Part shown: positions 4,285 through 43,963 of the stretch, piece after piece
Numbering within the stretch: the first letter of the stretch is position 1
Layout: every line of letters begins with the position of its first letter
Source: Bacteroidota bacterium
GTDB taxonomy: Bacteria > Bacteroidota > Bacteroidia > Cytophagales > Bernardetiaceae
Length of the DNA stretch: 43,963 nt
NCBI GenBank assembly: GCA_052033485.1
Contig: JBPOJO010000287.1
Span: 1-43,963, forward strand
Reading direction: 5' to 3'
Program-made: the position numbers and the translations under genes
Notes under the pieces: model-generated
The model's input: the letters and a program-made list of their open reading frames with translations, nothing else
Databases searched by the model: none
Told to the model about the DNA's origin: nothing

Positions 4285-4446
4285 ATGAAAAAGTTTTTTT
4301 CGATATACCATGACAGTGAGTTTGAAATTTGCTCATGCCGATATTGCAGAAATTATTTAGGCTACCATGATTTCAATCAAGAACCTGAATGGAATACCAC
4401 ATGTTCAAAATGTAAATTAGAGCAAACTCACAGCGAAAAAGTATGA
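4285..4446 (+). CDS. Small zinc-ribbon protein (53 aa)
   Basis: Hand translation: MKKFFSIYHDSEFEICSCRYCRNYLGYHDFNQEPEWNTTCSKCKLEQTHSEKV. ATGA overlap with the MTase start. Confidence 0.45.
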   Translation: MKKFFSIYHDSEFEICSCRYCRNYLGYHDFNQEPEWNTTCSKCKLEQTHSEKV

Positions 4447-5156
4447 GACATATTAGCTTATTTTCAGGTATTGGAGGGTTTGACTTGGCCGCTGAATGGG
4501 TCGGCTGGGAAAATGTTGCACAGGTTGAAATCGATCCTTTTTGTTTAAAAGTTTTAGAAAAAAATTTCCCTAATACTAAACGCTATCATGACATTAAAGA
4601 CTTTAAAACCGCAGAATATAGCGGAACAATTGATGTTATTTCAGGAGGATTCCCATGTCAACCTTTCTCCCTTGCAGGAAAAAGAGCTGGGAAAAAAGAT
4701 GACCGTCACCTCTGGCCAGAAATGTTTAGAGTTATCTCCGAAATACGTCCACAGTGGGTCGTTGCTGAGAATGTGCCTGGAATCCTTAGTATTGAATACG
4801 GCTTGGTATTCGAGCAAGTGTGCATTGATTTGGAAAGTATCGGCTACGAAATACAATCGGTTATTATACCAGCTGCGGCCAGAAATGCGCCACATCAACG
4901 CAAAAGGTTGTGGTTTATTGCCAACGCCAAGGGCAAGGGATTGGAAAGGAATGACTCAACGCGGACACCACAAACCAAAAGACGGGCTCCCCAACATGAT
5001 TTCACATCAGACTGGATTAAAGTTGCATCCGAACTTTGTCGAGTGGATGATGGGGTACCCAAAAGACTGGACAAAAGTAACCGATTAAAAGCACTTGGCA
5101 ATGCTATCGTTCCTCAAATAGCCTATGAAATTTTTAACGCAATAAACAATGTCTGA
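4443..5156 (+). CDS. DNA (cytosine-5)-methyltransferase, compact (237 aa)
   Basis: Motif I FSGIGG, motif IV GGFPCQPFS, motif VI AENVPG, motif VIII QRKRLWFIA, motif X GNAIVPQ. Confidence 0.9.
   Translation: MRHISLFSGIGGFDLAAEWVGWENVAQVEIDPFCLKVLEKNFPNTKRYHDIKDFKTAEYSGTIDVISGGFPCQPFSLAGKRAGKKDDRHLWPEMFRVISEIRPQWVVAENVPGILSIEYGLVFEQVCIDLESIGYEIQSVIIPAAARNAPHQRKRLWFIANAKGKGLERNDSTRTPQTKRRAPQHDFTSDWIKVASELCRVDDGVPKRLDKSNRLKALGNAIVPQIAYEIFNAINNV
4588..5088 (+). CDS. Embedded +1-frame ORF (166 codons) inside the C5-MTase gene. Its translation carries PTPxAxDWKG and NPxFVEWMMGYPxxWT-type blocks. Candidate overprinted gene or recoding frame.
   Basis: ORF track, with the frame verified codon by codon. 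Motif order is EDSHV.., MTVTSGQKC, GSLLRMCLES, LIWKVSATKYNRLLYQL, GLLPTPRARDWKG, LHPNFVEWMMGYPKDWT. Confidence 0.4.
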   Translation: MTLKTLKPQNIAEQLMLFQEDSHVNLSPLQEKELGKKMTVTSGQKCLELSPKYVHSGSLLRMCLESLVLNTAWYSSKCALIWKVSATKYNRLLYQLRPEMRHINAKGCGLLPTPRARDWKGMTQRGHHKPKDGLPNMISHQTGLKLHPNFVEWMMGYPKDWTKVTD

Positions 5157-5544
5157 AAGCGCCATACAAAAAGATTGCATTGAATATATTCGCGCCATAG
5201 GTGGTTATGCCGTGCGTGTGAACTCAGGGGCCATGCAAAAAAAATACACGCCGAAAAACGGCAAAAACGCGGGAATTGAAAAGAATTACTGGATTGCTTT
5301 AGCTCCCGAGGGCACTCCTGATATTTTATCTTGTATCAATGGCCGCTTTGTAGCCATTGAAGTAAAAAAAGATGAGGATGAGTATCAGAAATGGGTTGAA
5401 AGTGAAGAAACAGATCGGCGCTCGAATGCGCAACACCATCAGCAAGCTAACATCCAAAAAGCAAAAGGCATTACCCTAGTAGTTTGGTCTGTCGAGCAGC
5501 TTGAAAACGATATCAATGAACTTAAAAACAACCGCGAACTATGA
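5149..5544 (+). CDS. VRR-NUC domain nuclease (131 aa)
   Basis: GTPDILSCINGRFVAIEVKK (D...ExK core). The start overlaps the MTase stop. Confidence 0.8.
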   Translation: MSESAIQKDCIEYIRAIGGYAVRVNSGAMQKKYTPKNGKNAGIEKNYWIALAPEGTPDILSCINGRFVAIEVKKDEDEYQKWVESEETDRRSNAQHHQQANIQKAKGITLVVWSVEQLENDINELKNNREL

Positions 5545-6085: not shown

Positions 6086-7039
6086 ATGAACATGGATAAA
6101 AACGACGATTCAAACGTCAAAAAAAATCACGATGATGACTTTCCGTTGGATGGTCCTCCAGCTCAAATGCCTATGGCTGATCACGCCACCGGAGAAATAA
6201 TTGATCCTCCTAAAAAACAGGAAGTCCAAAAAGTAGCAACTATACAGCCCGCGCAACAAACTGGGGGGCCACTTCAAACCTTTGCAAACGTTTTAAAGGG
6301 AAAACAAAACGCACTTAAAAACTTTTTGGGAAATGAAGATAATGCAATGAAATTCCAGTCAGCAGTAATTCAAGCCATAAATGGTAATTCTGCGCTATTA
6401 TCATGCAGCCCACAAAGTTTATTGGGGGCTTTTATGGAAATTGCTTCTCTCGGTCTTTATCCAGGAAACTACGCGGGTGACGCGTATGTTGTACCTTACG
6501 GAGGAAAAGCACAGTTTCAAATCGGATACAGAGGAGTAAAAACACTCGCTTATCGTTCTGGTGTGATTCGCATGGGCGCTGAGGTTGTTTATTCTAAGGA
6601 CCACTATGAGGAAGTTTTAGGAACTGATCCGTATATTAAACACATTAAGCCATCATTCGGCAAAGCACGCGGTGAACCGGTTGGTGCTTATGCGTGGGCT
6701 GAAGTTGCCAACGGAAAAGTAGTTTTCAAATCAATGTCAAAAGATGACATCATGAAGATAAAAAAGATGTCTAAAGCCTCAGGTTCTTCACATTCGCCAT
6801 GGAATTCAAACGACCCTATGCTCTGGATGTGGGCAAAAACAGCGTTTAAGCAGCTTGGCAAATTGCTTCCAACATCCAATGACCTCGATCGGGCGCTTTA
6901 TTTGGATAACGTTAGCGAACGCGGTGGCTATATTGAATCAGAGGGCAGTGTTATTGAAGTAGCTTTTGACGACAACGAAACAAAGATTGAAGGAATGAAA
7001 AGCAAAAAGCAAGAAATGAGAGGACGTAAAAGGAAATAG
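6086..7039 (+). CDS. recT: RecT-family single-strand annealing recombinase (317 aa)
   Basis: CSPQSLLGAFMEIASLGLYPG...AYVVPYGGKAQFQIGYRG...WAKTAFKQLGKLLP are typical RecT blocks. Confidence 0.9.
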   Translation: MNMDKNDDSNVKKNHDDDFPLDGPPAQMPMADHATGEIIDPPKKQEVQKVATIQPAQQTGGPLQTFANVLKGKQNALKNFLGNEDNAMKFQSAVIQAINGNSALLSCSPQSLLGAFMEIASLGLYPGNYAGDAYVVPYGGKAQFQIGYRGVKTLAYRSGVIRMGAEVVYSKDHYEEVLGTDPYIKHIKPSFGKARGEPVGAYAWAEVANGKVVFKSMSKDDIMKIKKMSKASGSSHSPWNSNDPMLWMWAKTAFKQLGKLLPTSNDLDRALYLDNVSERGGYIESEGSVIEVAFDDNETKIEGMKSKKQEMRGRKRK

Positions 7040-7051
7040 ATTTATCCATCC

Positions 7052-7072
7052 GGGCCGGTGAAAATCCGGCCC
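7052..7072 (+). terminator. GC hairpin (gggccgg / ccggccc) after recT, with no U-tract
   Basis: 7-bp stem read by eye. Confidence 0.3.
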
Positions 7073-7103
7073 AAATAGAAAGATTTTATCCAATATTTAT
7101 CCC

Positions 7104-9206
7104 ATGAATAAATACGAAAAACTTACAACTGAAGAAAAGCAAGAACACCTCTCTAATTTTTTAATTCCGCACTGGTCAGTTAGCGCGGTTTCATCTTTCA
7201 TAAACAATGAAAAGGGGTTTGAGAAACAATATATTTTTAAACAATATTCAAAGACAAGCAGCTTGCCATCGATTATCGGTGATGTTTACCATAAAGCTTT
7301 AATGCAATTTTGGCTTTATTATAAAGAATGCGGAATGAAAATGAGCTTTGATGCATTCGCAGAAATTGCACTCGCTGAACTTAACATGGTCGGTGCAAAT
7401 AAATACCGTTCGTATAAAGGTGTTACGCTTGCTGAAACAAAGCTCGATGCATTAAAGGCCGTGAACTCTTTGATCAAAAACTTTATTGCAGAATGTGATG
7501 TTTATTTTAACGAAATTCAGGAAATTATCGGAGTTGAAAATACAATTATTGAATTTATTCAAATAAATGAAATTGATATTCCGCTTCCAATTAAATGCAA
7601 AGCGGACCTGATTTTTATCGATAAAGATGGCTCTTTAGGAATACTTGACCACAAATCAAAAAAGGATTTTACAAAAACAGAAGATATAAACCTAAAATAT
7701 GGGAATCAAACGGTGGGGCTTATTCTTGCAATAAATGAATGGATAAAAAATCAAAAAGAGGTACTTAAAAAATATCCTAAAGCAATCGAGGGTGTTAAAA
7801 AGTTCTTTTATTATGAAAATAAGATCAGCAAAAACAAGGATGGCAGCCGACAAATTCGGCAAATTCCTATTGATATAAAACAAAGTCAACAACTCTTTGA
7901 GCAAATATTATTTGAGGGGGTGTGGCGTGTTATGGAAGCCGTGCAAAACCCTGATTATGTTTATTTAATGAATCCGAATGACCATTTTGAAGACTCTGAG
8001 GAGATTGTAGAATTTTGGGTAAAAACGCACATTGAAGGTTTAGAAGGTTTCCCGGATTTGGAACCACACCAGGTGAAATTATTAAAAAAGAAACGTTCTG
8101 CTATCCGTCAGGCTTCACTTGTAGGGATACCCAAAAACGTTATAAAAGCTTTCAGCAATCCAAAGGAATTTATTTCATTATCTACTGCACACATGGAAAA
8201 TTTGACTCCATCGCAGCGTATCGAACACCGCTTGGCTACTTTCAATTATCCGGTAAAAGTAGGAAAAGTGATTGAAGGATACTCCTGTGATACATATCTC
8301 ATTGAGGTTAATGCGGGCCTTAAAATTTCGAATATTTATCAATACCGAATGGACATTGCGAATGCGCTCGGGGTTGAGGATGTAAGAATTGCATCAAATT
8401 TGGTTAAATATGAGGGTTTTACCTATGTTGCGATTGAGGCAAATCGCGAAAAAGCAACGGCGCTTTATCTTTCGCAAGGAGACATCCCTGCAGGCTATAA
8501 ATTCCCTATCGGACGTGATAACTTTGGAAATACGATGTGCTGGGATATTGAGAATCCATCCACGGCCCACATGATGATCGCCGGTGCGACCGGGAGCGGG
8601 AAATCGGTGGCAATTCGGAATGTGATTGAAACTGCGTTAAAAAAGAACGTGCGCGTTTCAATTCTTGACCCTAAAAATGAGTTTAAGCAGTATCAGAATA
8701 AAAACGTTGAAGTTATTTCCGAACTTCAAGAGATTGAAGACTTTATGGAAATGACAGTAATGGAAATGGATGAGATTTTCAGGACAAATGGAGCTTATGG
8801 AAACGGTCAAAAGCGCCTTGTGGTATTTGATGAGGCTGCGGACTGTTTCGCGAGGCAATCAAAGCAAAGGGTAAACTTTACGGAAGGCCCCAGGGGTGGC
8901 ATGAAAAAAAATGTAGATGTTGAATTTAAAACGCTTGAACAAAATACTTTAATCTTAGCTCAAAAGGCACGTTCTGCAGGAATCCATTTAATTCTAGCGG
9001 CTCAAAGGTTTTCGGTTAAAGTTTTATCCGGCGATGCGAAAGCAAACTTTACAACTCGTGTTTGCTTGAAAGTAATGAGCGGTGTTGACTCCAAGGTTAT
9101 GCTCGATCAGGAAGGAGCAGAAAAATTGAGAGGTAAAGGTGATGGTTTATTGATTTCTCCTGACCATTCAGAACCGGTCAGGCTTCAATGTTTTATGAGC
9201 GTTTAA
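7104..9206 (+). CDS. Fusion protein (700 aa): N-terminal PD-(D/E)xK (RecB/Cas4-like) nuclease and C-terminal FtsK/SpoIIIE-type DNA translocase ATPase
   Basis: The N-terminal part has GDVYHKAL, KADLIFIDKDGSLGILDHKSKK (D..D/ExK). The C-terminal part has Walker A AGATGSGKS, Walker B LVVFDEAAD, and AQKARSAGIHLILAAQRFSVKVLSGDAKANFTTRVCLKV..DSKVMLDQEGAEKLRGKGDGLL. Confidence 0.85.
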   Translation: MNKYEKLTTEEKQEHLSNFLIPHWSVSAVSSFINNEKGFEKQYIFKQYSKTSSLPSIIGDVYHKALMQFWLYYKECGMKMSFDAFAEIALAELNMVGANKYRSYKGVTLAETKLDALKAVNSLIKNFIAECDVYFNEIQEIIGVENTIIEFIQINEIDIPLPIKCKADLIFIDKDGSLGILDHKSKKDFTKTEDINLKYGNQTVGLILAINEWIKNQKEVLKKYPKAIEGVKKFFYYENKISKNKDGSRQIRQIPIDIKQSQQLFEQILFEGVWRVMEAVQNPDYVYLMNPNDHFEDSEEIVEFWVKTHIEGLEGFPDLEPHQVKLLKKKRSAIRQASLVGIPKNVIKAFSNPKEFISLSTAHMENLTPSQRIEHRLATFNYPVKVGKVIEGYSCDTYLIEVNAGLKISNIYQYRMDIANALGVEDVRIASNLVKYEGFTYVAIEANREKATALYLSQGDIPAGYKFPIGRDNFGNTMCWDIENPSTAHMMIAGATGSGKSVAIRNVIETALKKNVRVSILDPKNEFKQYQNKNVEVISELQEIEDFMEMTVMEMDEIFRTNGAYGNGQKRLVVFDEAADCFARQSKQRVNFTEGPRGGMKKNVDVEFKTLEQNTLILAQKARSAGIHLILAAQRFSVKVLSGDAKANFTTRVCLKVMSGVDSKVMLDQEGAEKLRGKGDGLLISPDHSEPVRLQCFMSV

Positions 9207-9225
9207 ATTTTACTTAAAATGTTAT

Positions 9226-9239
9226 TTGCTGGCCAGCAA
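9226..9239. promoter_or_regulatory. 14-bp perfect palindrome TTGCTGGCCAGCAA downstream of the nuclease-FtsK gene
   Basis: Read by eye. It could be a protein-binding site or a weak terminator stem. Confidence 0.3.
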
Positions 9240-9278
9240 TAAACAGAAAACTTATTTTTTTAGCCGAAAGGCAAATAT

Positions 9279-9563
9279 ATGAAAAATCAAAAAAACTCAA
9301 AAATCGGTATGTTCTTTTTGGGCGCTATGCTCTTGGCAACTTTATCAGGATGCACAACGGAAAGCCCTGATGCAAAGTTAGAAAAATCCACAAAGGATTT
9401 AAAGAAAACTCTGAATCAAAACTTAGGTGGTACCAGCACAAACAAGAACTTTCAAGATGCCCTCGATGCAACCCAAAAAGCACAGAAACAGGAAATGGAA
9501 AAGCAAAAGGCTATGTTGAAAGATTTGAGCAAACCAACTGACAACATTAACATATTGTACTAG
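9279..9563 (+). CDS. Lipoprotein (94 aa)
   Basis: Signal peptide with a lipobox (LLATLSGC) followed by a hydrophilic mature part. Confidence 0.75.
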   Translation: MKNQKNSKIGMFFLGAMLLATLSGCTTESPDAKLEKSTKDLKKTLNQNLGGTSTNKNFQDALDATQKAQKQEMEKQKAMLKDLSKPTDNINILY

Positions 9564-9574
9564 CCAAAAATCCG

Positions 9575-9605
9575 GTGGGGATTGAAAAAGATTTTTGATC
9601 CCCAC
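9575..9605 (+). terminator. Hairpin after the lipoprotein gene (gtggggat...atccccac, with inner A5/T5 pairing)
   Basis: 8-bp outer stem plus inner AAAAA/TTTTT pairing, read by eye. Confidence 0.5.
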
Positions 9606-10967: not shown

Positions 10968-11081
10968 ATGACAAAGATATTAACAAATATCAGGCAAACA
11001 GCTGGAGTTCTCCGTTTTCAGCGTCATGGCGTTGTTAAATCACCGGATAACTCCGGCTTTTTGCTTGATACTTATGTCTAA
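10968..11081 (+). CDS. Possible 37-aa leader ORF overlapping the start of the replication gene
   Basis: Hand translation: MTKILTNIRQTAGVLRFQRHGVVKSPDNSGFLLDTYV. Its stop at 11079-11081 overlaps the ATG at 11074. Confidence 0.3.
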   Translation: MTKILTNIRQTAGVLRFQRHGVVKSPDNSGFLLDTYV

Positions 11082-11883
11082 ACAAAGACTGATAAAAACA
11101 TCATTTTGGGACGAGGATGAATGGGTACAAACCCTAAATTCTAACGAAACATTGCTTTATTTGTATCTTTTAACAGGACCGAAAACCTCGCTTTGTGGCA
11201 TTTTTAAGGTACTTATAAGCCACGTAAAACTTGCAACAAAACTTACGAGCGAACAAATAGAAAGTGCCCTTAAAAGATTTGAAAAAGAAGGAAAAATAAT
11301 TGTAAAAGATCATTGGATTATTCTGTTAAACAGATCAAAACACCAAAATCCATCACCTAAAATTTCGCGAGGCATTGAAAGGGAACTGCTTGAAATCCCG
11401 CATGAAGTAACGAAACTCATGTACCCTATCGATACTGTATCGATACAAAACGGCACCCCTAAGGTAAAGGTTAAGGTAGAGTCTAAGTCTAAGGTAAAGG
11501 TTAATAATATTAAAAAGGTGTTTGATCAACAATCTGATGAGTGGAAACTTTCGGACCTCCTTTTTAATTTAATTATAAAAAACAATCCATACCACAAGTT
11601 TAAAGATTATTCCGAACCTGAGAGGGAACTACAAAAGCAATCGTTTTCAACCGTGGCTGATTTAATGTTCCGTGTGGATAAAAGAGATGTGAAATTTAGT
11701 GAATTTTTGGTTGAGTGGTGCCAAAATAGCGATTTTTGGAGGGCAATTATTCTTTCAATGAATAATTTTAGGGATAAGTACGATCAACTGGCAGCACAAG
11801 CCAAAAGAGCGTATGAAGAGGAGAAAAAAGAAAAGAAACCTAAGTATTTATTTCCTGTAGAAGTTAACCAAACACAACCATGA
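11074..11883 (+). CDS. Replisome-organizer / replication-initiator-like protein (269 aa from MSKQRLIKTSFWDEDEW). It contains an internal iteron array.
   Basis: The N-terminal FWDEDEW...LLYLYLLTGPKTSLCGIF...LKRFEKEGKIIV pattern resembles DnaD/DUF4373-type phage replication proteins. The DNA repeats at 11422..11510 encode PKVKVKVESKSKVKV. An alternative start exists at 11026. Confidence 0.65.
   Translation: MSKQRLIKTSFWDEDEWVQTLNSNETLLYLYLLTGPKTSLCGIFKVLISHVKLATKLTSEQIESALKRFEKEGKIIVKDHWIILLNRSKHQNPSPKISRGIERELLEIPHEVTKLMYPIDTVSIQNGTPKVKVKVESKSKVKVNNIKKVFDQQSDEWKLSDLLFNLIIKNNPYHKFKDYSEPERELQKQSFSTVADLMFRVDKRDVKFSEFLVEWCQNSDFWRAIILSMNNFRDKYDQLAAQAKRAYEEEKKEKKPKYLFPVEVNQTQP
11422..11510. repeat. 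Iteron locus A: 2 x TATCGATAC at 11-bp phasing, AAAACGGCA, then an (AAGGTW)n hexamer tract. Candidate origin.
   Basis: TATCGATAC at 11427-35 and 11438-46, AAAACGGCA at 11447-55, hexamer tract at 11461-11503. A diverged copy lies at 23450..23555. Confidence 0.6.
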
Positions 11884-12959: not shown

Positions 12960-14249
12960 ATGAACCGACCTAAAGTTAATTTTAAGGTAGAGAAATGGGT
13001 AAAGCTGGCGGACCTTAAGGAACATCCAAAAAATCCACGCAAAGATCTCCTGCAGAATCCAGAAAAGTTTGCATCGTTAAAACAGAGCATTTTAGAAGGA
13101 GTTTTTGAGGCGGTGAAGGTAAGCAGCCTCTCAGGGTTCTGTCTGGCCGGAAATCAAAGATTAAAGGCCTTTGCTGACCTAGGATTTGATGAGGTACCGG
13201 TACAGGTGAACGAATACGAAACGGAAAAAGAAGAGATCCGCGATATGATTAAAGACAATAACGAGTGGGGATCTTACGATTATCCGTTACTTTCAGAGTC
13301 TTTAAAGGGGTTGGAATTGGATATTGATGCGCTTGGTTTCAATGAAATTGATTTAAAGGCCATGCAGCGCATCGAGGATACAAAAGGCAATACCGATGAG
13401 GATTATATCCCAAACGTATCGGATAAAAGTAAAACGAAAATTGGCGATGTTTTCAAGCTTGGAGAACACCGGCTCATGTGTGGCGATGCCACAAATTTAG
13501 AGCATATCGATAAACTTATGGGCGGTATGCGTGCCGACATGGTTTTTACAGACCCGCCATATAACGTCAATTATCAGGGTAGCATCAACAAAACTTGGAG
13601 CAAAATCAATAATGATAACGTTTCCCGCGAAAACTTCCGCGCCTTTCTTGAAGCGGCATTTTTATGCTATCGCGATGCCGCGAAAACTTCCGCACCTTTC
13701 TACGTTTGCCATTCTTCAAAGTATCAAAGAGAGTTTGAAGATGCCATGGAAGCAGTGGGACTTCATGTACGAAACCAAATTATTTGGAATAAAAAGCTTG
13801 CTGTACTCGGCTGGGGTGATTATCGATGGAAACATGAGCCGATTTTTTACGCTGTTTTTGATAAATCTAAATCGCTTTTTTACGGTGATCGTTCCCAGTA
13901 TACCGTTTGGGATGAAAAGTGGGATGAGGCTAAACTTATTGAAAACATAAAAAATATTTGTGAAAAGCAAGAGAAGGGAGCATCCACCGTTTGGACTCTT
14001 GGAATAATATCCGGGGAATACGTACACCCCACGCAAAAACCTATTGAATTGATTGAAATTGCGTTGAAAAACTCATCGAAGGAGCAGGATCTTATCGTTG
14101 ACCTTTTCGGGGGTAGTGGCTCCACATTGATCGGAGCAGAAAAGACAAAGCGGGTTTGCTACACCATGGAATTAGAGCCAAAATACGTGGACGTTATACG
14201 CAAACGCTGGGAGGACTACACAGGCGAAAAAGCAGAACAATTAAATTAA
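12960..14249 (+). CDS. Fusion of a ParB-like nuclease domain with a DPPY-type (N6-adenine or N4-cytosine) DNA methyltransferase (429 aa)
   Basis: The N-terminus has LKEHPKNPRK...GNQRLKAF (ParB N-domain). It also has FTDPPYNV and HPTQKP...DLFGGSGSTLIGAE. Confidence 0.9.
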   Translation: MNRPKVNFKVEKWVKLADLKEHPKNPRKDLLQNPEKFASLKQSILEGVFEAVKVSSLSGFCLAGNQRLKAFADLGFDEVPVQVNEYETEKEEIRDMIKDNNEWGSYDYPLLSESLKGLELDIDALGFNEIDLKAMQRIEDTKGNTDEDYIPNVSDKSKTKIGDVFKLGEHRLMCGDATNLEHIDKLMGGMRADMVFTDPPYNVNYQGSINKTWSKINNDNVSRENFRAFLEAAFLCYRDAAKTSAPFYVCHSSKYQREFEDAMEAVGLHVRNQIIWNKKLAVLGWGDYRWKHEPIFYAVFDKSKSLFYGDRSQYTVWDEKWDEAKLIENIKNICEKQEKGASTVWTLGIISGEYVHPTQKPIELIEIALKNSSKEQDLIVDLFGGSGSTLIGAEKTKRVCYTMELEPKYVDVIRKRWEDYTGEKAEQLN

Positions 14250-16415: not shown

Positions 16416-17015
16416 ATGGTAGTTCGAGTGAGTCAAAAAAAATTAGACAAATTGAAAAAGCCTTACGAACGTATAACAGCTCGTGAGGCTGCAAAGGAAC
16501 GTATACGCATCGAAACGGAAATGAAGAGGCAACGGAATTGTCCAACTCCTGGATGTGAGAAAAAATTTACTTGGAGAAATACGAAGAACGGACAAATTCA
16601 TTGCAGCAATAATTGTGCTTTAAATGATCCAGATCGAGGAGGCGGACGGCCCACGATAATGAAAGACGATGTGCTGTTGAAATTAAAGTACGCATTTTCA
16701 GTTGACGCTACAAACGAGGAAGCTTGTCTTTATGCTGGCATCTCTATAAGCGCTTTGTACGTGTATGAGAAGCAAAACCCGGAGTTTAAAGAAGAAAAGA
16801 AGCAGTTAAAAACGAAGATGGTTTTAAATGCTCGTGTAAAGGTTTTTAACGACATTTCACAAAATGTTGAAACCGCAAAATGGTTGCTTGAAAGAAAACG
16901 TAAGAATGAGTTTGCAACAAAATCAATTCACACCGGCGAAGTATTCACTGGCGAAATGGATCCTGAGCACAAAAAACGTGCAAAAGAGATCCTTAGACAA
17001 ATGGATGAGGATTAA
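16416..17015 (+). CDS. Zinc-finger + HTH protein (199 aa), candidate small terminase subunit
   Basis: CPTPGCEK...HCSNNC. The segment ACLYAGISISALYVYEKQNPEF...AKWLLERK resembles TerS/HTH_Tnp-like N-domains. It is not adjacent to TerL. Confidence 0.45.
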   Translation: MVVRVSQKKLDKLKKPYERITAREAAKERIRIETEMKRQRNCPTPGCEKKFTWRNTKNGQIHCSNNCALNDPDRGGGRPTIMKDDVLLKLKYAFSVDATNEEACLYAGISISALYVYEKQNPEFKEEKKQLKTKMVLNARVKVFNDISQNVETAKWLLERKRKNEFATKSIHTGEVFTGEMDPEHKKRAKEILRQMDED

Positions 17016-17035: not shown

Positions 17036-17578
17036 ATGGAGCAAAATCAATCAGAAAAGATTTACGAAGCCGCAATTCAATTTAAAAAAGCCATTGAAAA
17101 AACAGGGCAAAAACCAACTCAATTTATTTCCTCAACCTCAATTTGCATGAGAATCTTTTATTTATTTCGTAAAGAAGATGAAACCGGCGTTTCGGGAACT
17201 GGTTTTGTTGCTGAAGGAGTTGTTTTTTCAACTGGGAAAATTGTTATGAATTGGCTGTCAAAGCTTACGTCTACATGTATTTATGAATCGATAGATGACA
17301 TTGTAAAGATTCATGGCCATAACAAAAAGACCGAAATACTATGGGAACACGAAGATTATATCAATGAAAAAGGGGAGCCGATTGTTTCCGATGGCAACTG
17401 GTATTATACAAATCTCATAACTAAGAAATACATCGGCTGGCTTTCTAATCTTGAAGGTTTATTGAAAATATCAGAATTTTTAAAGCAAAAGTTTGATGCT
17501 GAAAATGAAAAGAAAGCTTTGGATGAAATGGAAAAAGCAAAAAATGACCCCTTATATTTCTTAAAACACAATAAATAA
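17036..17578 (+). CDS. Hypothetical protein (180 aa)
   Basis: ORF track. Confidence 0.7.
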   Translation: MEQNQSEKIYEAAIQFKKAIEKTGQKPTQFISSTSICMRIFYLFRKEDETGVSGTGFVAEGVVFSTGKIVMNWLSKLTSTCIYESIDDIVKIHGHNKKTEILWEHEDYINEKGEPIVSDGNWYYTNLITKKYIGWLSNLEGLLKISEFLKQKFDAENEKKALDEMEKAKNDPLYFLKHNK

Positions 17579-18027
17579 TGCAAGTACTACCAACGCAATG
17601 TAAAAGGCCATCGAGGTCAGTAAAAATAACCGACATGGATCGAGTAGAAAAAGAAGCAAAAGAAATGATAGAACTTTCCAGAATGGCGCTGGGACGTTAC
17701 CCAAGAGCCTTGGCATTGGCTCATTGCCAAGTTGATCACGCTGACCCTTTGCGTTTTTTTGTTTTTAATAATGGACGGATTATTATAAATCCGCAAATCG
17801 ATGATTTCATGAAAGAAGAGGGTTTTGTGCGTGATACTGAGGGTTGTTTTTCGTACCCATTCAGGCCTGAGGTTTCGATTAAACGCTATAAAACTTTGAA
17901 GGTTTCTTATCAAGAAGTAAAAAAACGTGGTGGCGTTAAAAACAAGGTTGAAGTTGTGGACGGCATGCTTGCCCGCATTTTTCAACATGAATTAGATCAT
18001 TTTAATGGGAAAAGTATTTATGCTTAA
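17578..18027 (+). CDS. def: Peptide deformylase (149 aa; alternative start at 17635)
   Basis: Motif 2 EGCFS and motif 3 QHELDHFNG. Motif 1 is divergent (ALAHCQV). Confidence 0.8.
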   Translation: MQVLPTQCKRPSRSVKITDMDRVEKEAKEMIELSRMALGRYPRALALAHCQVDHADPLRFFVFNNGRIIINPQIDDFMKEEGFVRDTEGCFSYPFRPEVSIKRYKTLKVSYQEVKKRGGVKNKVEVVDGMLARIFQHELDHFNGKSIYA

Positions 18028-19545: not shown

Positions 19546-21156
19546 ATGAGCGATATTACCGACAAAGATCTTGACTCACCGGAAATTAGACGATCGATGG
19601 GAGCAGAAAGTGTTTTCGGCTTTGCACTTTGTTATTTCCCTGAACTTTTTAAATTTGACGTGCCGAAATTCCATAAAAAATGGTATAGGCTTTTAAGTTT
19701 CTTTGATAAAAATACAGGAACTTTTTTTAATTATCTTATTCTTTTAGCGTTTAGGGATTCAGCAAAAACGACCTTAGCAAAAATTAAAGTTGTGCGTGAT
19801 ATTTGCTATAAACGGAAACGTTTAATTGCCTATGTTTGTTATGAAAAAGACAGGTCAGGTGAAGCGCTTTTTGATATTGCAACCTGGCTTCAAACAAACG
19901 CATTGATCATTCATGATTTTGGAAATCTTTTTGAATCCGCAAGTTCTGATGATAAAAAACCAGAAAAAAAGACCATAAATAACTTTGTAGCCAGCGGCGT
20001 GAGAGTTACTGCATTTTCAATTCGGCAATCTGTGCGTGGGCGTATTTTTGGATTTGAACGGCCTGATTGCTATGTAATTGATGACTTTGAAAATAACGTA
20101 ACAAAGAAATCCGCTTTAATGACGCGAAAGGTTATTGACTTCCTGAAGGAGTTAATGACTGGACTCGCGGCTGGTGCGGAAGTCATTTTGTTATGTAACC
20201 GGATTTCCGATGTTGGATCCGTTCAATGGTTGTTAGACACGGCCCACAAAAATCCAGAGTTTAGAGTCAGTGAGGTGGCAGTGATTGAGGCAGGACGATC
20301 AACGTGGCCCTCTAAGTTTGCGTTAACAGACGGTGAAGCAGCTGAAGCAAATAAAGCCAAGAAAGACCCTTCAAAGTTCGTTAAATCGCTTGAATCGCTC
20401 AAACGAACCATGAATGCGGACCGAACAAAAACGTTTGAGCAAGAAATGTTAAATGAAGCGTTGACTGTTGGAGATCGATTTTTTGATACTGAAAAGATCG
20501 ATTTGCGAATCAAAGTTTTACAGGATATTGAGTGGCAAGACAAAGATCCGTCCCTTCCAAATTATCGTAAAAAAGAAGGTGACTGGATTCGATGGGGAGT
20601 TTTGAATAAAAATCACATCAACGTTGTCGGTTCCGATATTGCTGAAGGATATGGAAATGACAGCTCAGTTATTGAGGATTTCGATATTACTATAGGCAAA
20701 CAAATGGCTGAATATGAAAGTAATTTGTGCCCTCCGGAAATACTCGGGAAATATATGATTGAAGAGGGAAAAGCCGGCGGTTATTGTCTGCTTATACCAG
20801 AAAGAAATAATGTGGGAGTTGGAACAATCCAATACATAAAAACAGAAAAATATTTAAATCTTTATCGCGAAAAAACTGTCGACAAAATAAGCAATCAGCC
20901 TGTGAAAAAATATGGATACCACACCAATGGCCACACAAAACCCATTATGCTTTTTGATTTTAAAAGAGATTTTGAAGCTGGTCTGATTGAAATAATGTCC
21001 ATTTCTCTTTTAAGGGAAATGAGAGCGTTTACAAATTCAGATGTTGTTTATGCAAATTTTGATCCGGAAGCTTCAAACCATTTTGACCGGGTAATGGCTG
21101 CCTGTATCACTTGGCAGGGTCGAAATGTGAAGCAAATAAAAGGTTTCATTGTATAA
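19546..21156 (+). CDS. terL: Terminase large subunit (536 aa)
   Basis: FHKKWY..., LAFRDSAKTT (P-loop-like), RPDCYVIDDFEN (Walker B), and a C-terminal nuclease-like segment. Its position before the portal gene is consistent. Confidence 0.85.
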   Translation: MSDITDKDLDSPEIRRSMGAESVFGFALCYFPELFKFDVPKFHKKWYRLLSFFDKNTGTFFNYLILLAFRDSAKTTLAKIKVVRDICYKRKRLIAYVCYEKDRSGEALFDIATWLQTNALIIHDFGNLFESASSDDKKPEKKTINNFVASGVRVTAFSIRQSVRGRIFGFERPDCYVIDDFENNVTKKSALMTRKVIDFLKELMTGLAAGAEVILLCNRISDVGSVQWLLDTAHKNPEFRVSEVAVIEAGRSTWPSKFALTDGEAAEANKAKKDPSKFVKSLESLKRTMNADRTKTFEQEMLNEALTVGDRFFDTEKIDLRIKVLQDIEWQDKDPSLPNYRKKEGDWIRWGVLNKNHINVVGSDIAEGYGNDSSVIEDFDITIGKQMAEYESNLCPPEILGKYMIEEGKAGGYCLLIPERNNVGVGTIQYIKTEKYLNLYREKTVDKISNQPVKKYGYHTNGHTKPIMLFDFKRDFEAGLIEIMSISLLREMRAFTNSDVVYANFDPEASNHFDRVMAACITWQGRNVKQIKGFIV

Positions 21157-43763: not shown

Positions 43764-43919
43764 TTATTTTTGAGATTCTTCTTTGTGATACTGTTTTGCG
43801 TCTTTAAGGCTTCCTGAACAATTTATGCATATCTTTGTGCTGTACCAGTTGTTTTCGCCGCAAATGCAATCCGGGAGCCTTAGCTTTGCTTGTTTCTTGT
43901 GATAGTCAGTTATTAGCAT
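43764..43919 (-). CDS. Small zinc-ribbon protein (51 aa) spanning the closure repeat
   Basis: Hand translation: MLITDYHKKQAKLRLPDCICGENNWYSTKICINCSGSLKDAKQYHKEESQK. Its first 83 nt are duplicated at 1..83. Confidence 0.45.
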   Translation of the reverse strand: MLITDYHKKQAKLRLPDCICGENNWYSTKICINCSGSLKDAKQYHKEESQK

Positions 43920-43963
43920 GATGTTCAAGTAAAAAAATAAGATTAGAAATAAAATTTGATTTA
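43837..43963. repeat. Terminal direct repeat copy 2 (identical to 1..127)
   Basis: Exact 127-nt identity read by eye. Confidence 0.9.

Follow-up and report, generated by a model that had tools for sequence, protein, structure and literature searches.

What does a phage do with a polypeptide that joins a nuclease to an FtsK-type DNA pump and is encoded directly behind recT? The question is raised by one open reading frame (ORF) in contig JBPOJO010000287.1 of the Bacteroidota bacterium assembly GCA_052033485.1, a stretch of 43,963 nucleotides (nt) that was analysed as a whole and is referred to here as the window. The ORF (7104..9206, + strand) starts at an ATG and encodes 700 amino acids (aa), arranged as a PD-(D/E)xK nuclease, a linker, and the alpha and beta domains of FtsK. 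An earlier note on this DNA had assigned the gene to the slot that RecT's exonuclease partner takes and had suggested end resection coupled to translocation. From the anatomy of the protein and the synteny of its gene we infer that the fusion is probably an ATP-driven hexameric enzyme that resects DNA ends in partnership with a phage annealing protein.

The ORF proved exact, and all of the motifs quoted for it in that note are present in its translation: GDVYHKAL (aa 59-66) and KADLIFIDKDGSLGILDHKSKK (aa 165-186) in the nuclease half, AGATGSGKS (aa 493-501) and LVVFDEAAD (aa 572-580) in the ATPase half, and the further motor blocks ARSAGIHLILAAQRFSV...KANFTTR (aa 622-652) and DSKVMLDQEGAEKLRGKGDGLL (aa 662-683). 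Pfam matches were judged against curated cut-offs, which three domains exceed, and the claim that nuclease and FtsK motor reside in a single polypeptide is thereby upheld. PHROGs divides the protein as Pfam does, into an 'exonuclease' (phrog_1218, aa 22-226) and an 'FtsK/SpoIIIE-like' part (phrog_1358, aa 374-697). All domains and motifs described below are on the + strand. The RecB/Cas4-fold nuclease domain occupies 7104..8003 (aa ~1-300) and terminates in a conserved NPDYVYLMNP.D...FW motif; its boundary, first put at about residue 330, was moved to about aa 300 because stand-alone homologues stop there. The helical linker that follows (8004..8183, aa ~301-360) contains the basic stretch KLLKKKRSAIRQ and is missing from the stand-alone nuclease homologues. 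Its helices in the AlphaFold model (298-310, 321-337 and 344-351) have a predicted local distance difference test score (pLDDT) of about 80, which drops to <50 past residue 353. FtsK alpha (8196..8423, aa ~365-440) is defined by PF17854 and by an alignment to Pseudomonas aeruginosa FtsK that runs from residue 365, and FtsK beta, the RecA-like ATPase (8496..9206, aa ~465-700), by PF01580, phrog_1358 and FtsK in the PDB. The limits first given for the motor were about 360-700; the FtsK alignment covers aa 365-695.

The continuity of the gene was examined in independent assemblies. A contig of run X1 spans 6697-9600 with zero differences from the window, and a contig from an unrelated soil study, which spans 7468-8226 and includes the domain junction, differs by substitutions only. 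No indels or joints were found in the fusion region among contigs from 4 runs, and 19 of the 19 listed substitutions within the ORF in contigs of independent runs are at third codon positions. The occurrence of substitutions only, all 19 of them at third codon positions, indicates that the frame of the fusion is real and that both halves are under purifying selection. Furthermore, the start codon is taken to be correct because full-length relatives (36-81% identity) keep the N-terminus MNKY..L. An assembly chimera or a frameshift is ruled out by the independent contigs across the junction and by the many full-length relatives.

The nuclease half matches PDDEXK_1 (PF12705) over aa 23-283 with 31.2 bits against a cut-off of 22 (E 2.7e-7), and phrog_1218 with an E of 5.4e-13. 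Conservation was followed in two alignments of relatives with 36-81% identity, one of 40 sequences (A1) and one of 30 sequences for the N-terminal domain (A4). D168, D182, K184 and Q202 are invariant in both, and H63, H183 and E145 are conserved at >=90%. The catalytic core spans 7605..7655, with D168 at 7605-7607, D182 at 7647-7649, then H183, and K184 at 7653-7655; H63 (7290-7292) and Q202 (7707-7709) lie outside this span. The AlphaFold model of the domain (pLDDT 88.7; predicted template modelling score 0.83) puts D168 ahead of strand 169-173, the DHK triplet inside strand 178-186 and Q202 in helix 192-214. Foldseek matched this model to ACE1 of the Cas4 family (7e-8) and to the AdnA nuclease domain (7e-7), and also to 3l0a (a putative exonuclease), Dna2, the Cas4 protein SSO0001, Exo5 and RecB, with a probability of 1.00 for ACE1, the AdnA domain, 3l0a, Dna2 and SSO0001. 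The fold also resembles 119 models of stand-alone phage 'RecB/Cas4/RecE-like exonucleases'. A profile of the domain gave zero matches to PDB sequences, and residue equivalence to solved nucleases consequently rests on fold and motif placement.

The glutamine of the RecB QxxxY motif corresponds to the invariant Q202; the tyrosine, although it is the family consensus (QAIxY), is leucine in the protein of the window. No conserved cysteines of the kind that form the four-cysteine iron-sulphur cluster of Cas4 sensu stricto, AddB, Dna2 and Exo5 occur in the invariant or >=90% columns of the domain in either alignment, which places it in a RecB-like branch that lacks the cluster. Judged by sequence and predicted fold, the N-terminal domain is a complete RecB/Cas4-fold PD-(D/E)xK nuclease. 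The earlier note had recognized a D...D/ExK core and had cautioned that loss of catalytic D/E/K residues in alignments would leave a mere scaffold; D168, D182 and K184 are kept throughout the 40 and the 30 sequences, in a domain of RecB/Cas4 fold.

The motor half carries FtsK_alpha (PF17854) at aa 368-433, with 33.7 bits against a cut-off of 22.9, and FtsK_SpoIIIE (PF01580), with 56.9 bits against a cut-off of 24. P. aeruginosa FtsK (PDB 2iuu) aligns with an E of 1.4e-30 and phrog_1358 with an E of 1e-46. HerA-related models (DUF87, HerA_C) match the motor more weakly and in the P-loop region only, and no UvrD or superfamily 1 (SF1) helicase domain was found in the fusion with Pfam. The Walker A motif G494-S501 lies at 8583-8606, Walker B (D576-E577) at 8829-8834 and the QR motif (Q634-R635) at 9003-9008. 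In the 40 relatives of A1, with identities down to 36%, G494, G497-K500, D576, E577, Q634 and R635 are invariant and S501 is conserved at >=90%. R635 pairs in the alignment with the arginine of the FtsK ATQRP sequence. The arginine finger of FtsK is R620 (PMC7321959), and R635, in a QR motif that aligns with the arginine-finger motif, is a putative counterpart. Both halves of the protein thus look catalytically competent at the level of their conserved residues.

Two further features of the motor concern its relatives. The stretch from Walker B to the KTLEEN helix (8835-8930, aa ~578-609; columns ~630-700 of A1) is hypervariable in length, from 0 to about 70 residues, with long, charged and helix-like versions in some relatives. 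In one relative of 967 aa (P0123) the Walker A loop is interrupted by an intein that contains an HNH endonuclease domain (GATG|intein|SGKS), at the site that corresponds to 8592/8593 of the window, between G497 and S498. Indispensable motifs such as this one are typical places for inteins to home.

The conservation of the ATPase bears on the possibility that the FtsK half only forms a scaffold that oligomerizes and clamps the DNA end, ring-shaped like the lambda Exo trimer or the RecE tetramer, with ATP spent on loading or release, and that the nuclease is processive on its own. The exonucleases known as partners of single-strand annealing proteins, lambda Exo and RecE, are indeed toroidal oligomers, and the stand-alone homologues of the nuclease evidently function without a motor. 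However, the Walker A, Walker B and QR residues are invariant, and the P-loop serves as an intein homing site. Such strong conservation favors a working ATPase cycle, and we regard a passive role as very unlikely.

The motor is not that of a chromosomal FtsK. Pfam gave no match to the Ftsk_gamma domain in the fusion, and this domain is considered absent because the fusion and all aligned relatives stop 5-15 residues past the beta domain. Against the NCBIfam FtsK equivalog the fusion scores 108 bits, far under the cut-off of 1566 bits, and it is therefore not an FtsK orthologue in spite of its database name. A role in dimer resolution such as that of cellular FtsK is ruled out, given the missing gamma domain, the lack of a membrane or septum anchor (the N-terminus is a soluble nuclease fold) and a score far below the equivalog cut-off.

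Is the architecture an isolated event? A protein-database search with the fusion returned 346 matches, and among the best 120 nearly every one is full-length (660-740 aa, 36-81% identity); many contain the set PF12705, PF17854 and PF01580. Where a source is named it belongs to the Bacteroidota (Paraflavitalea, Coprobacter, Puia, Bacteroidales), and 'DNA translocase FtsK' is the sole name that the proteins carry. IMG/VR holds 318 fusion loci; the full-length relatives number more than 100 and are encoded by Bacteroidota phages and prophages. Three remoter long members (P0162, P0173 and P0184) have the identical set of three domains. A scan of genome contigs with patterns derived from the motor recovered mostly cellular FtsK, and only one full-length fusion, in Melioribacteraceae (L081). 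Among 50,697 deposited GenBank phage genomes there was no match to the N-terminal half and none covering >50% of the fusion, and NCBIfam, PHROG and PADLOC hold no model that spans the whole protein. The architecture is widespread and constitutes a real family, not a one-off or an artefact.

A search of the full-text literature for the architecture and its context found no paper that describes the fusion, an earlier passing mention remaining possible, and FtsK goes unmentioned in the classic survey of phage recombinases. The earlier note had allowed that the architecture might turn out to be common and already characterized. Common it is, in metagenomes, and no paper was found to characterize it. 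As far as the literature search reached, it is uncharacterized rather than rare.

The gene order of the window is informative about function. The recT gene (6086..7039, + strand) encodes a single-strand annealing protein of 317 aa (PF03837, E 4.4e-34; phrog_148, E 1.6e-59), the presumed functional partner, and is co-oriented with the fusion across an intergenic gap of 64 nt. The fusion thus directly follows recT, as had been noted. To what extent this arrangement is general was evaluated in a set of 81 full-length loci, in which the genes at position -1 were clustered and then annotated. A tblastn search with the RecT of the window found RecT near only 7 of the 81 loci, which seemed to refute the synteny until clustering and annotation revealed that the partner family varies. 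Position -1 is almost always taken by one gene of 230-320 aa on the same strand. Cluster C1, the commonest (50 loci), corresponds to phrog_3657, whose function is not annotated; it is followed by AAA_24/Sak4-like proteins (C12, 9 loci), RecT (C14, 8 loci including the window), RecT-like proteins of phrog_561 (C16, 7 loci), and the unannotated C32 (2 loci) and C91 (1 locus). In one locus (L004) RecT stands at position -2. Precomputed annotations of other contigs add an ERF partner, in a Paraflavitalea prophage with integrase and repressor, and further cases of RecT or AAA_24. The stop of the partner and the start of the fusion overlap by 4 nt in 67 of the 81 pairs. Dereplication at 70% identity left 26 fusion clusters, and the partner is swapped even within one of them. 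The assignment to the exonuclease-partner position, made for a single locus, consequently generalizes to RecT, RecT-like, Sak4-like and ERF partners.

These neighborhoods bear directly on an alternative already raised in the earlier note, namely that the motor reels in duplex DNA of the host or of a competitor for the nuclease to shred. The purpose would be nucleotide scavenging, host shut-off or superinfection exclusion. A fast pump for double-stranded DNA with up to six nucleases would be an efficient degrader, and pairs of an FtsK-HerA ATPase with a PD-(D/E)xK nuclease do act in conflict systems. In DUF4297-HerA, for example, the effector that accompanies a ring ATPase of the FtsK-HerA superfamily is a PD-(D/E)xK nuclease (PMC11291478). 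DUF4297-HerA and Sir2-HerA resemble the fusion in pairing such a ring ATPase with an effector, but they are two-protein host defence systems with ATPases of the HerA clade, while the fusion is encoded by phages within a recombination module. The ATPase half also matches the mad8, SspH and HerA defence models at the level of the domain. However, tight translational coupling to annealing-protein genes of at least four families would be unexpected of a shredder. Many carriers are temperate prophages with integrase and repressor, for which indiscriminate degradation of the host would be costly; PADLOC gave no match at system level, and the neighboring genes include no consistent self-protection or immunity gene. 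Destruction of foreign DNA is consequently disfavored and seems to us quite improbable. Membership in a known defence system is ruled out, since PADLOC returned only the three ATPase-domain matches and one weak Cas4-like match; with the N-terminal half alone it returned none.

Homologues of the nuclease that lack the motor provide an additional line of evidence. A profile of the nuclease domain recovered 402 cluster representatives, and the best 150 of these 402 include 59 of fusion size and 39 of stand-alone size. One stand-alone homologue of 278 aa with PDDEXK_1 only (P0188) is encoded directly after RecT, with a 4-nt overlap and without an FtsK gene. The stand-alone forms end in (F/Y)LPNP...W, the counterpart of the motif that closes the nuclease domain of the fusion. 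That a close stand-alone form (P0142) might be one piece of a split fusion is ruled out, as there is no FtsK gene downstream of it; the contig of a second such form (P0125) is cut off too early to show one. Because motorless homologues occupy the slot after RecT, the fusion can be understood as an exonuclease partner that acquired a linker and a motor. The simplest reading of the family is that of an ordinary exonuclease partner of phage annealing proteins to which linker and FtsK motor were added. Lambda Exo-Beta, RecE-RecT and the pairs of RecT with a stand-alone PDDEXK_1 protein, itself homologous to the nuclease domain of the fusion, share with it gene order, orientation and frequent overlap of start and stop. 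In these two-gene modules, however, the exonuclease has no ATPase and gains its processivity from a passive toroid, whereas the fusion carries an appended linker and about 340 residues of FtsK motor.

The same homologues speak to a second role conceivable for a duplex pump, in which the FtsK ring is a branch-migration or fork motor comparable to RuvAB or RecG and the nuclease cuts the branched intermediate, during recombination-dependent replication or the resolution of concatemers. A ring translocase on double-stranded DNA would be mechanically apt for branch migration, and the fusion does sit in a replication and recombination module. NinG, RusA or VRR-NUC genes are often near its relatives, and the window itself has an endonuclease-like gene (5149-5544) and a DnaD-like initiator (11026-11883). 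Against this reading, these genomes already have distinct resolvase candidates. Moreover, the nuclease has the fold of RecB, Cas4, Dna2, Exo5 and phage exonucleases and not that of the Hjc, RecU or RusA resolvases, and its stand-alone homologues are in the classical exonuclease slot behind RecT. We consider action at junctions or forks unlikely.

End resection, the reading we prefer, can be spelled out as a sequence of steps. The FtsK part would form a hexameric ring threaded onto a free duplex end, which could be an end of the phage genome, a break or a rolling-circle tail. The duplex would enter the ring at the beta face and be pumped out at the alpha face, as in FtsK, and the nuclease domains would hang off the alpha, or exit, face. 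Since the nuclease is N-terminal to alpha and hence at the exit side, the duplex would be fed into the nucleases. One strand, presumably the 5' strand, would be degraded processively, and the other would be left single-stranded with a 3' end. This tail would then be coated by RecT (in the relatives by Sak4, ERF or others) and annealed by it to a complementary strand, with genome circularization, recombination-dependent replication or repair as the outcome.

Several points weigh against this proposal and have to be set beside it. FtsK translocates on duplex DNA without unwinding it and RecB-family nucleases act on single strands, so that strand separation is left without explanation. Six tethered nucleases could destroy both strands instead of resecting one, and for a ring without gamma there is no account of loading or of the choice of direction. 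The tyrosine of the QxxxY motif is replaced by leucine in the protein of the window and in its closest relative, and by alanine in another relative (P0004). The recT gene of the window is separated from the fusion by its 64 nt and its product is without the C-terminal tail of most partners. The commonest partner, C1 (50 of the 81 loci), is not supported as an annealing protein by the tests applied: hhalign gave a probability of 1% for its relation to RecT, its AlphaFold model from a shallow alignment is poor (pLDDT 57), and Foldseek found nothing better than E 0.1. Finally, no function has been established for the FtsK-like genes that phages carry without a nuclease, and recombination genes are found only sometimes in their neighborhoods.

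The C1 family comprises proteins of ~280 aa with 5,853 homologues, all of them 'hypothetical' and many in prophages or genomes of Bacteroides ovatus and B. thetaiotaomicron. Examples are L019:4161-4997 and the proteins P0266-P0385. Pfam and NCBIfam hold no model for it, and its profile found no match in the PDB. C1 is a candidate for a new recombinase family.

Partners of six unrelated families share a C-terminus of the form ...[L/M/I/V][P/L]-COOH (for example KEDMP, KVELP, APVMP or AELL; loci L001-L081 and L161-L164). It is carried by C1, C32, C91, ERF, the RecT-like proteins of phrog_561 and the Sak4-like proteins, together with 2 of the 7 listed RecT partners. Neither the RecT of the window, which ends in GRKRK, nor its closest relatives have it, and the RecT that goes with a stand-alone nuclease lacks it too. 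The peptide is not explained by the ATGA overlap, because it persists in pairs without overlap and ahead of different stop codons. A docking tail for the fusion is one possible role. A bolder proposal would make the fusion a universal 'plug-in' resection motor, a hexameric pump with six nucleases, that serves at least six unrelated partner families and in one large clade recruits them through their C-terminal docking peptide ...[L/M][P/L]-COOH; C1, C32 and C91 would then be new annealing-protein families. We offer this combination tentatively, as possible but rather doubtful.

How does the fusion compare with known resection machines? In HerA-NurA of archaea and bacteria, a hexameric ATPase of the FtsK-HerA superfamily drives duplex DNA into an attached nuclease and generates 3' tails for recombination (PMC5715905). 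This system is the closest in working principle, a ring translocase on double-stranded DNA that feeds a nuclease. It differs in having a HerA-clade ATPase instead of FtsK alpha-beta, a NurA nuclease of RNase-H-like fold instead of PD-(D/E)xK, and two proteins in a 6:2 ratio instead of one polypeptide. Furthermore, it works with Mre11-Rad50 and RadA/RecA and not with a phage annealing protein. The fusion may accordingly be regarded as a functional analogue of HerA-NurA, though not as a member of that system. RecBCD, AddAB, AdnAB and Dna2 likewise combine a motor with a RecB-family nuclease for end resection, but their motors are SF1 helicases that move on single strands. Dna2 moreover carries an iron-sulphur cluster, in contrast to the fusion with its lack of conserved cysteines. 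The description of the protein as a motor-plus-nuclease analogue of RecBCD/AddAB was therefore plausible in its resection part and less apt in the analogy, since the fusion has no SF1 helicase and HerA-NurA is closer. FtsK and SpoIIIE share alpha, beta, Walker A and B and the QR motif with the fusion, which lacks their gamma domain (KOPS/XerD) and membrane anchor.

The closest phage relatives of the motor are stand-alone FtsK-like translocases (phrog_1358) of Omega-like mycobacteriophages and Bacillus phages, which align over aa 361-699 with about 32% identity and have no nuclease domain. In Mycobacterium phage Bobby (L172 3821-6326) the FtsK-like gene is two genes after a gene for a Ku-like protein that binds double-strand breaks, and in Bacillus phage Pony (L173 3351-7882) it belongs to a module with SbcC-like and RecT-like genes. 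The neighborhood of the FtsK-like gene in phage Grass has no such DNA-end context. These neighborhoods lend weak support to an end-processing role.

The genome that carries the fusion is that of a tailed phage. Bases 1-127 of the window are repeated perfectly and directly at 43837-43963, and this 127-nt terminal repeat marks an assembly overlap. It points to a genome of about 43.8 kb that is complete and either circular or circularly permuted. The large genes all lie on the + strand and include TerS (16416-17015), TerL (19546-21156), portal, major head protein, tape measure and Dit. A function of the fusion as packaging motor is ruled out, as the phage has TerS, TerL and portal genes of its own. 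The early DNA-metabolism block consists of a C5-methyltransferase, the endonuclease-like gene, LPD29, RecT and the fusion, and continues with the DnaD-like initiator, a ParB-methyltransferase and a DnaQ-like exonuclease. No other exonuclease of RecB, lambda-Exo or RecE type was found in the window, nor were tRNA genes, and there is no integrase among the ORFs scanned. The DNA originates from a wastewater metagenome, and related sequence is present in further wastewater and soil studies.

Some other genes deserve mention. The C5-cytosine methyltransferase (4443-5156, 237 aa) is short and covers just the first 182 of 324 profile positions. The ParB-methyltransferase (12960-14249, 429 aa, phrog_498) is itself a fusion, of a ParB N-terminal domain with a DNA methyltransferase, and a peptide-deformylase-like gene (17578-18027) lies amid the genes of the small and large terminase subunits. 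Two related phage or prophage contigs have a reverse-transcriptase gene (RVT_1; L161:20026-21054 and L164:7347-8399) that shares the early block with the fusion and lies a few kb downstream.

If end resection is indeed the function of this protein, it would represent a third design beside the SF1-helicase-nuclease machines and the two-protein HerA-NurA: an FtsK-type duplex pump covalently joined to a RecB-type nuclease and used by phages with simple annealing proteins. It would also provide a first testable function for many phage 'FtsK-like' genes, and the label 'DNA translocase FtsK' is in any case misleading for the fusion family. The constant fusion gene could mark recombinase families that have gone unrecognized, following the logic of Lopes et al. 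2010 (PMC2896510). Finally, an annealing protein together with its cognate motor-exonuclease, abundant in Bacteroides prophages, is a candidate tool for recombineering with double-stranded DNA in Bacteroidota, where such tools are scarce.

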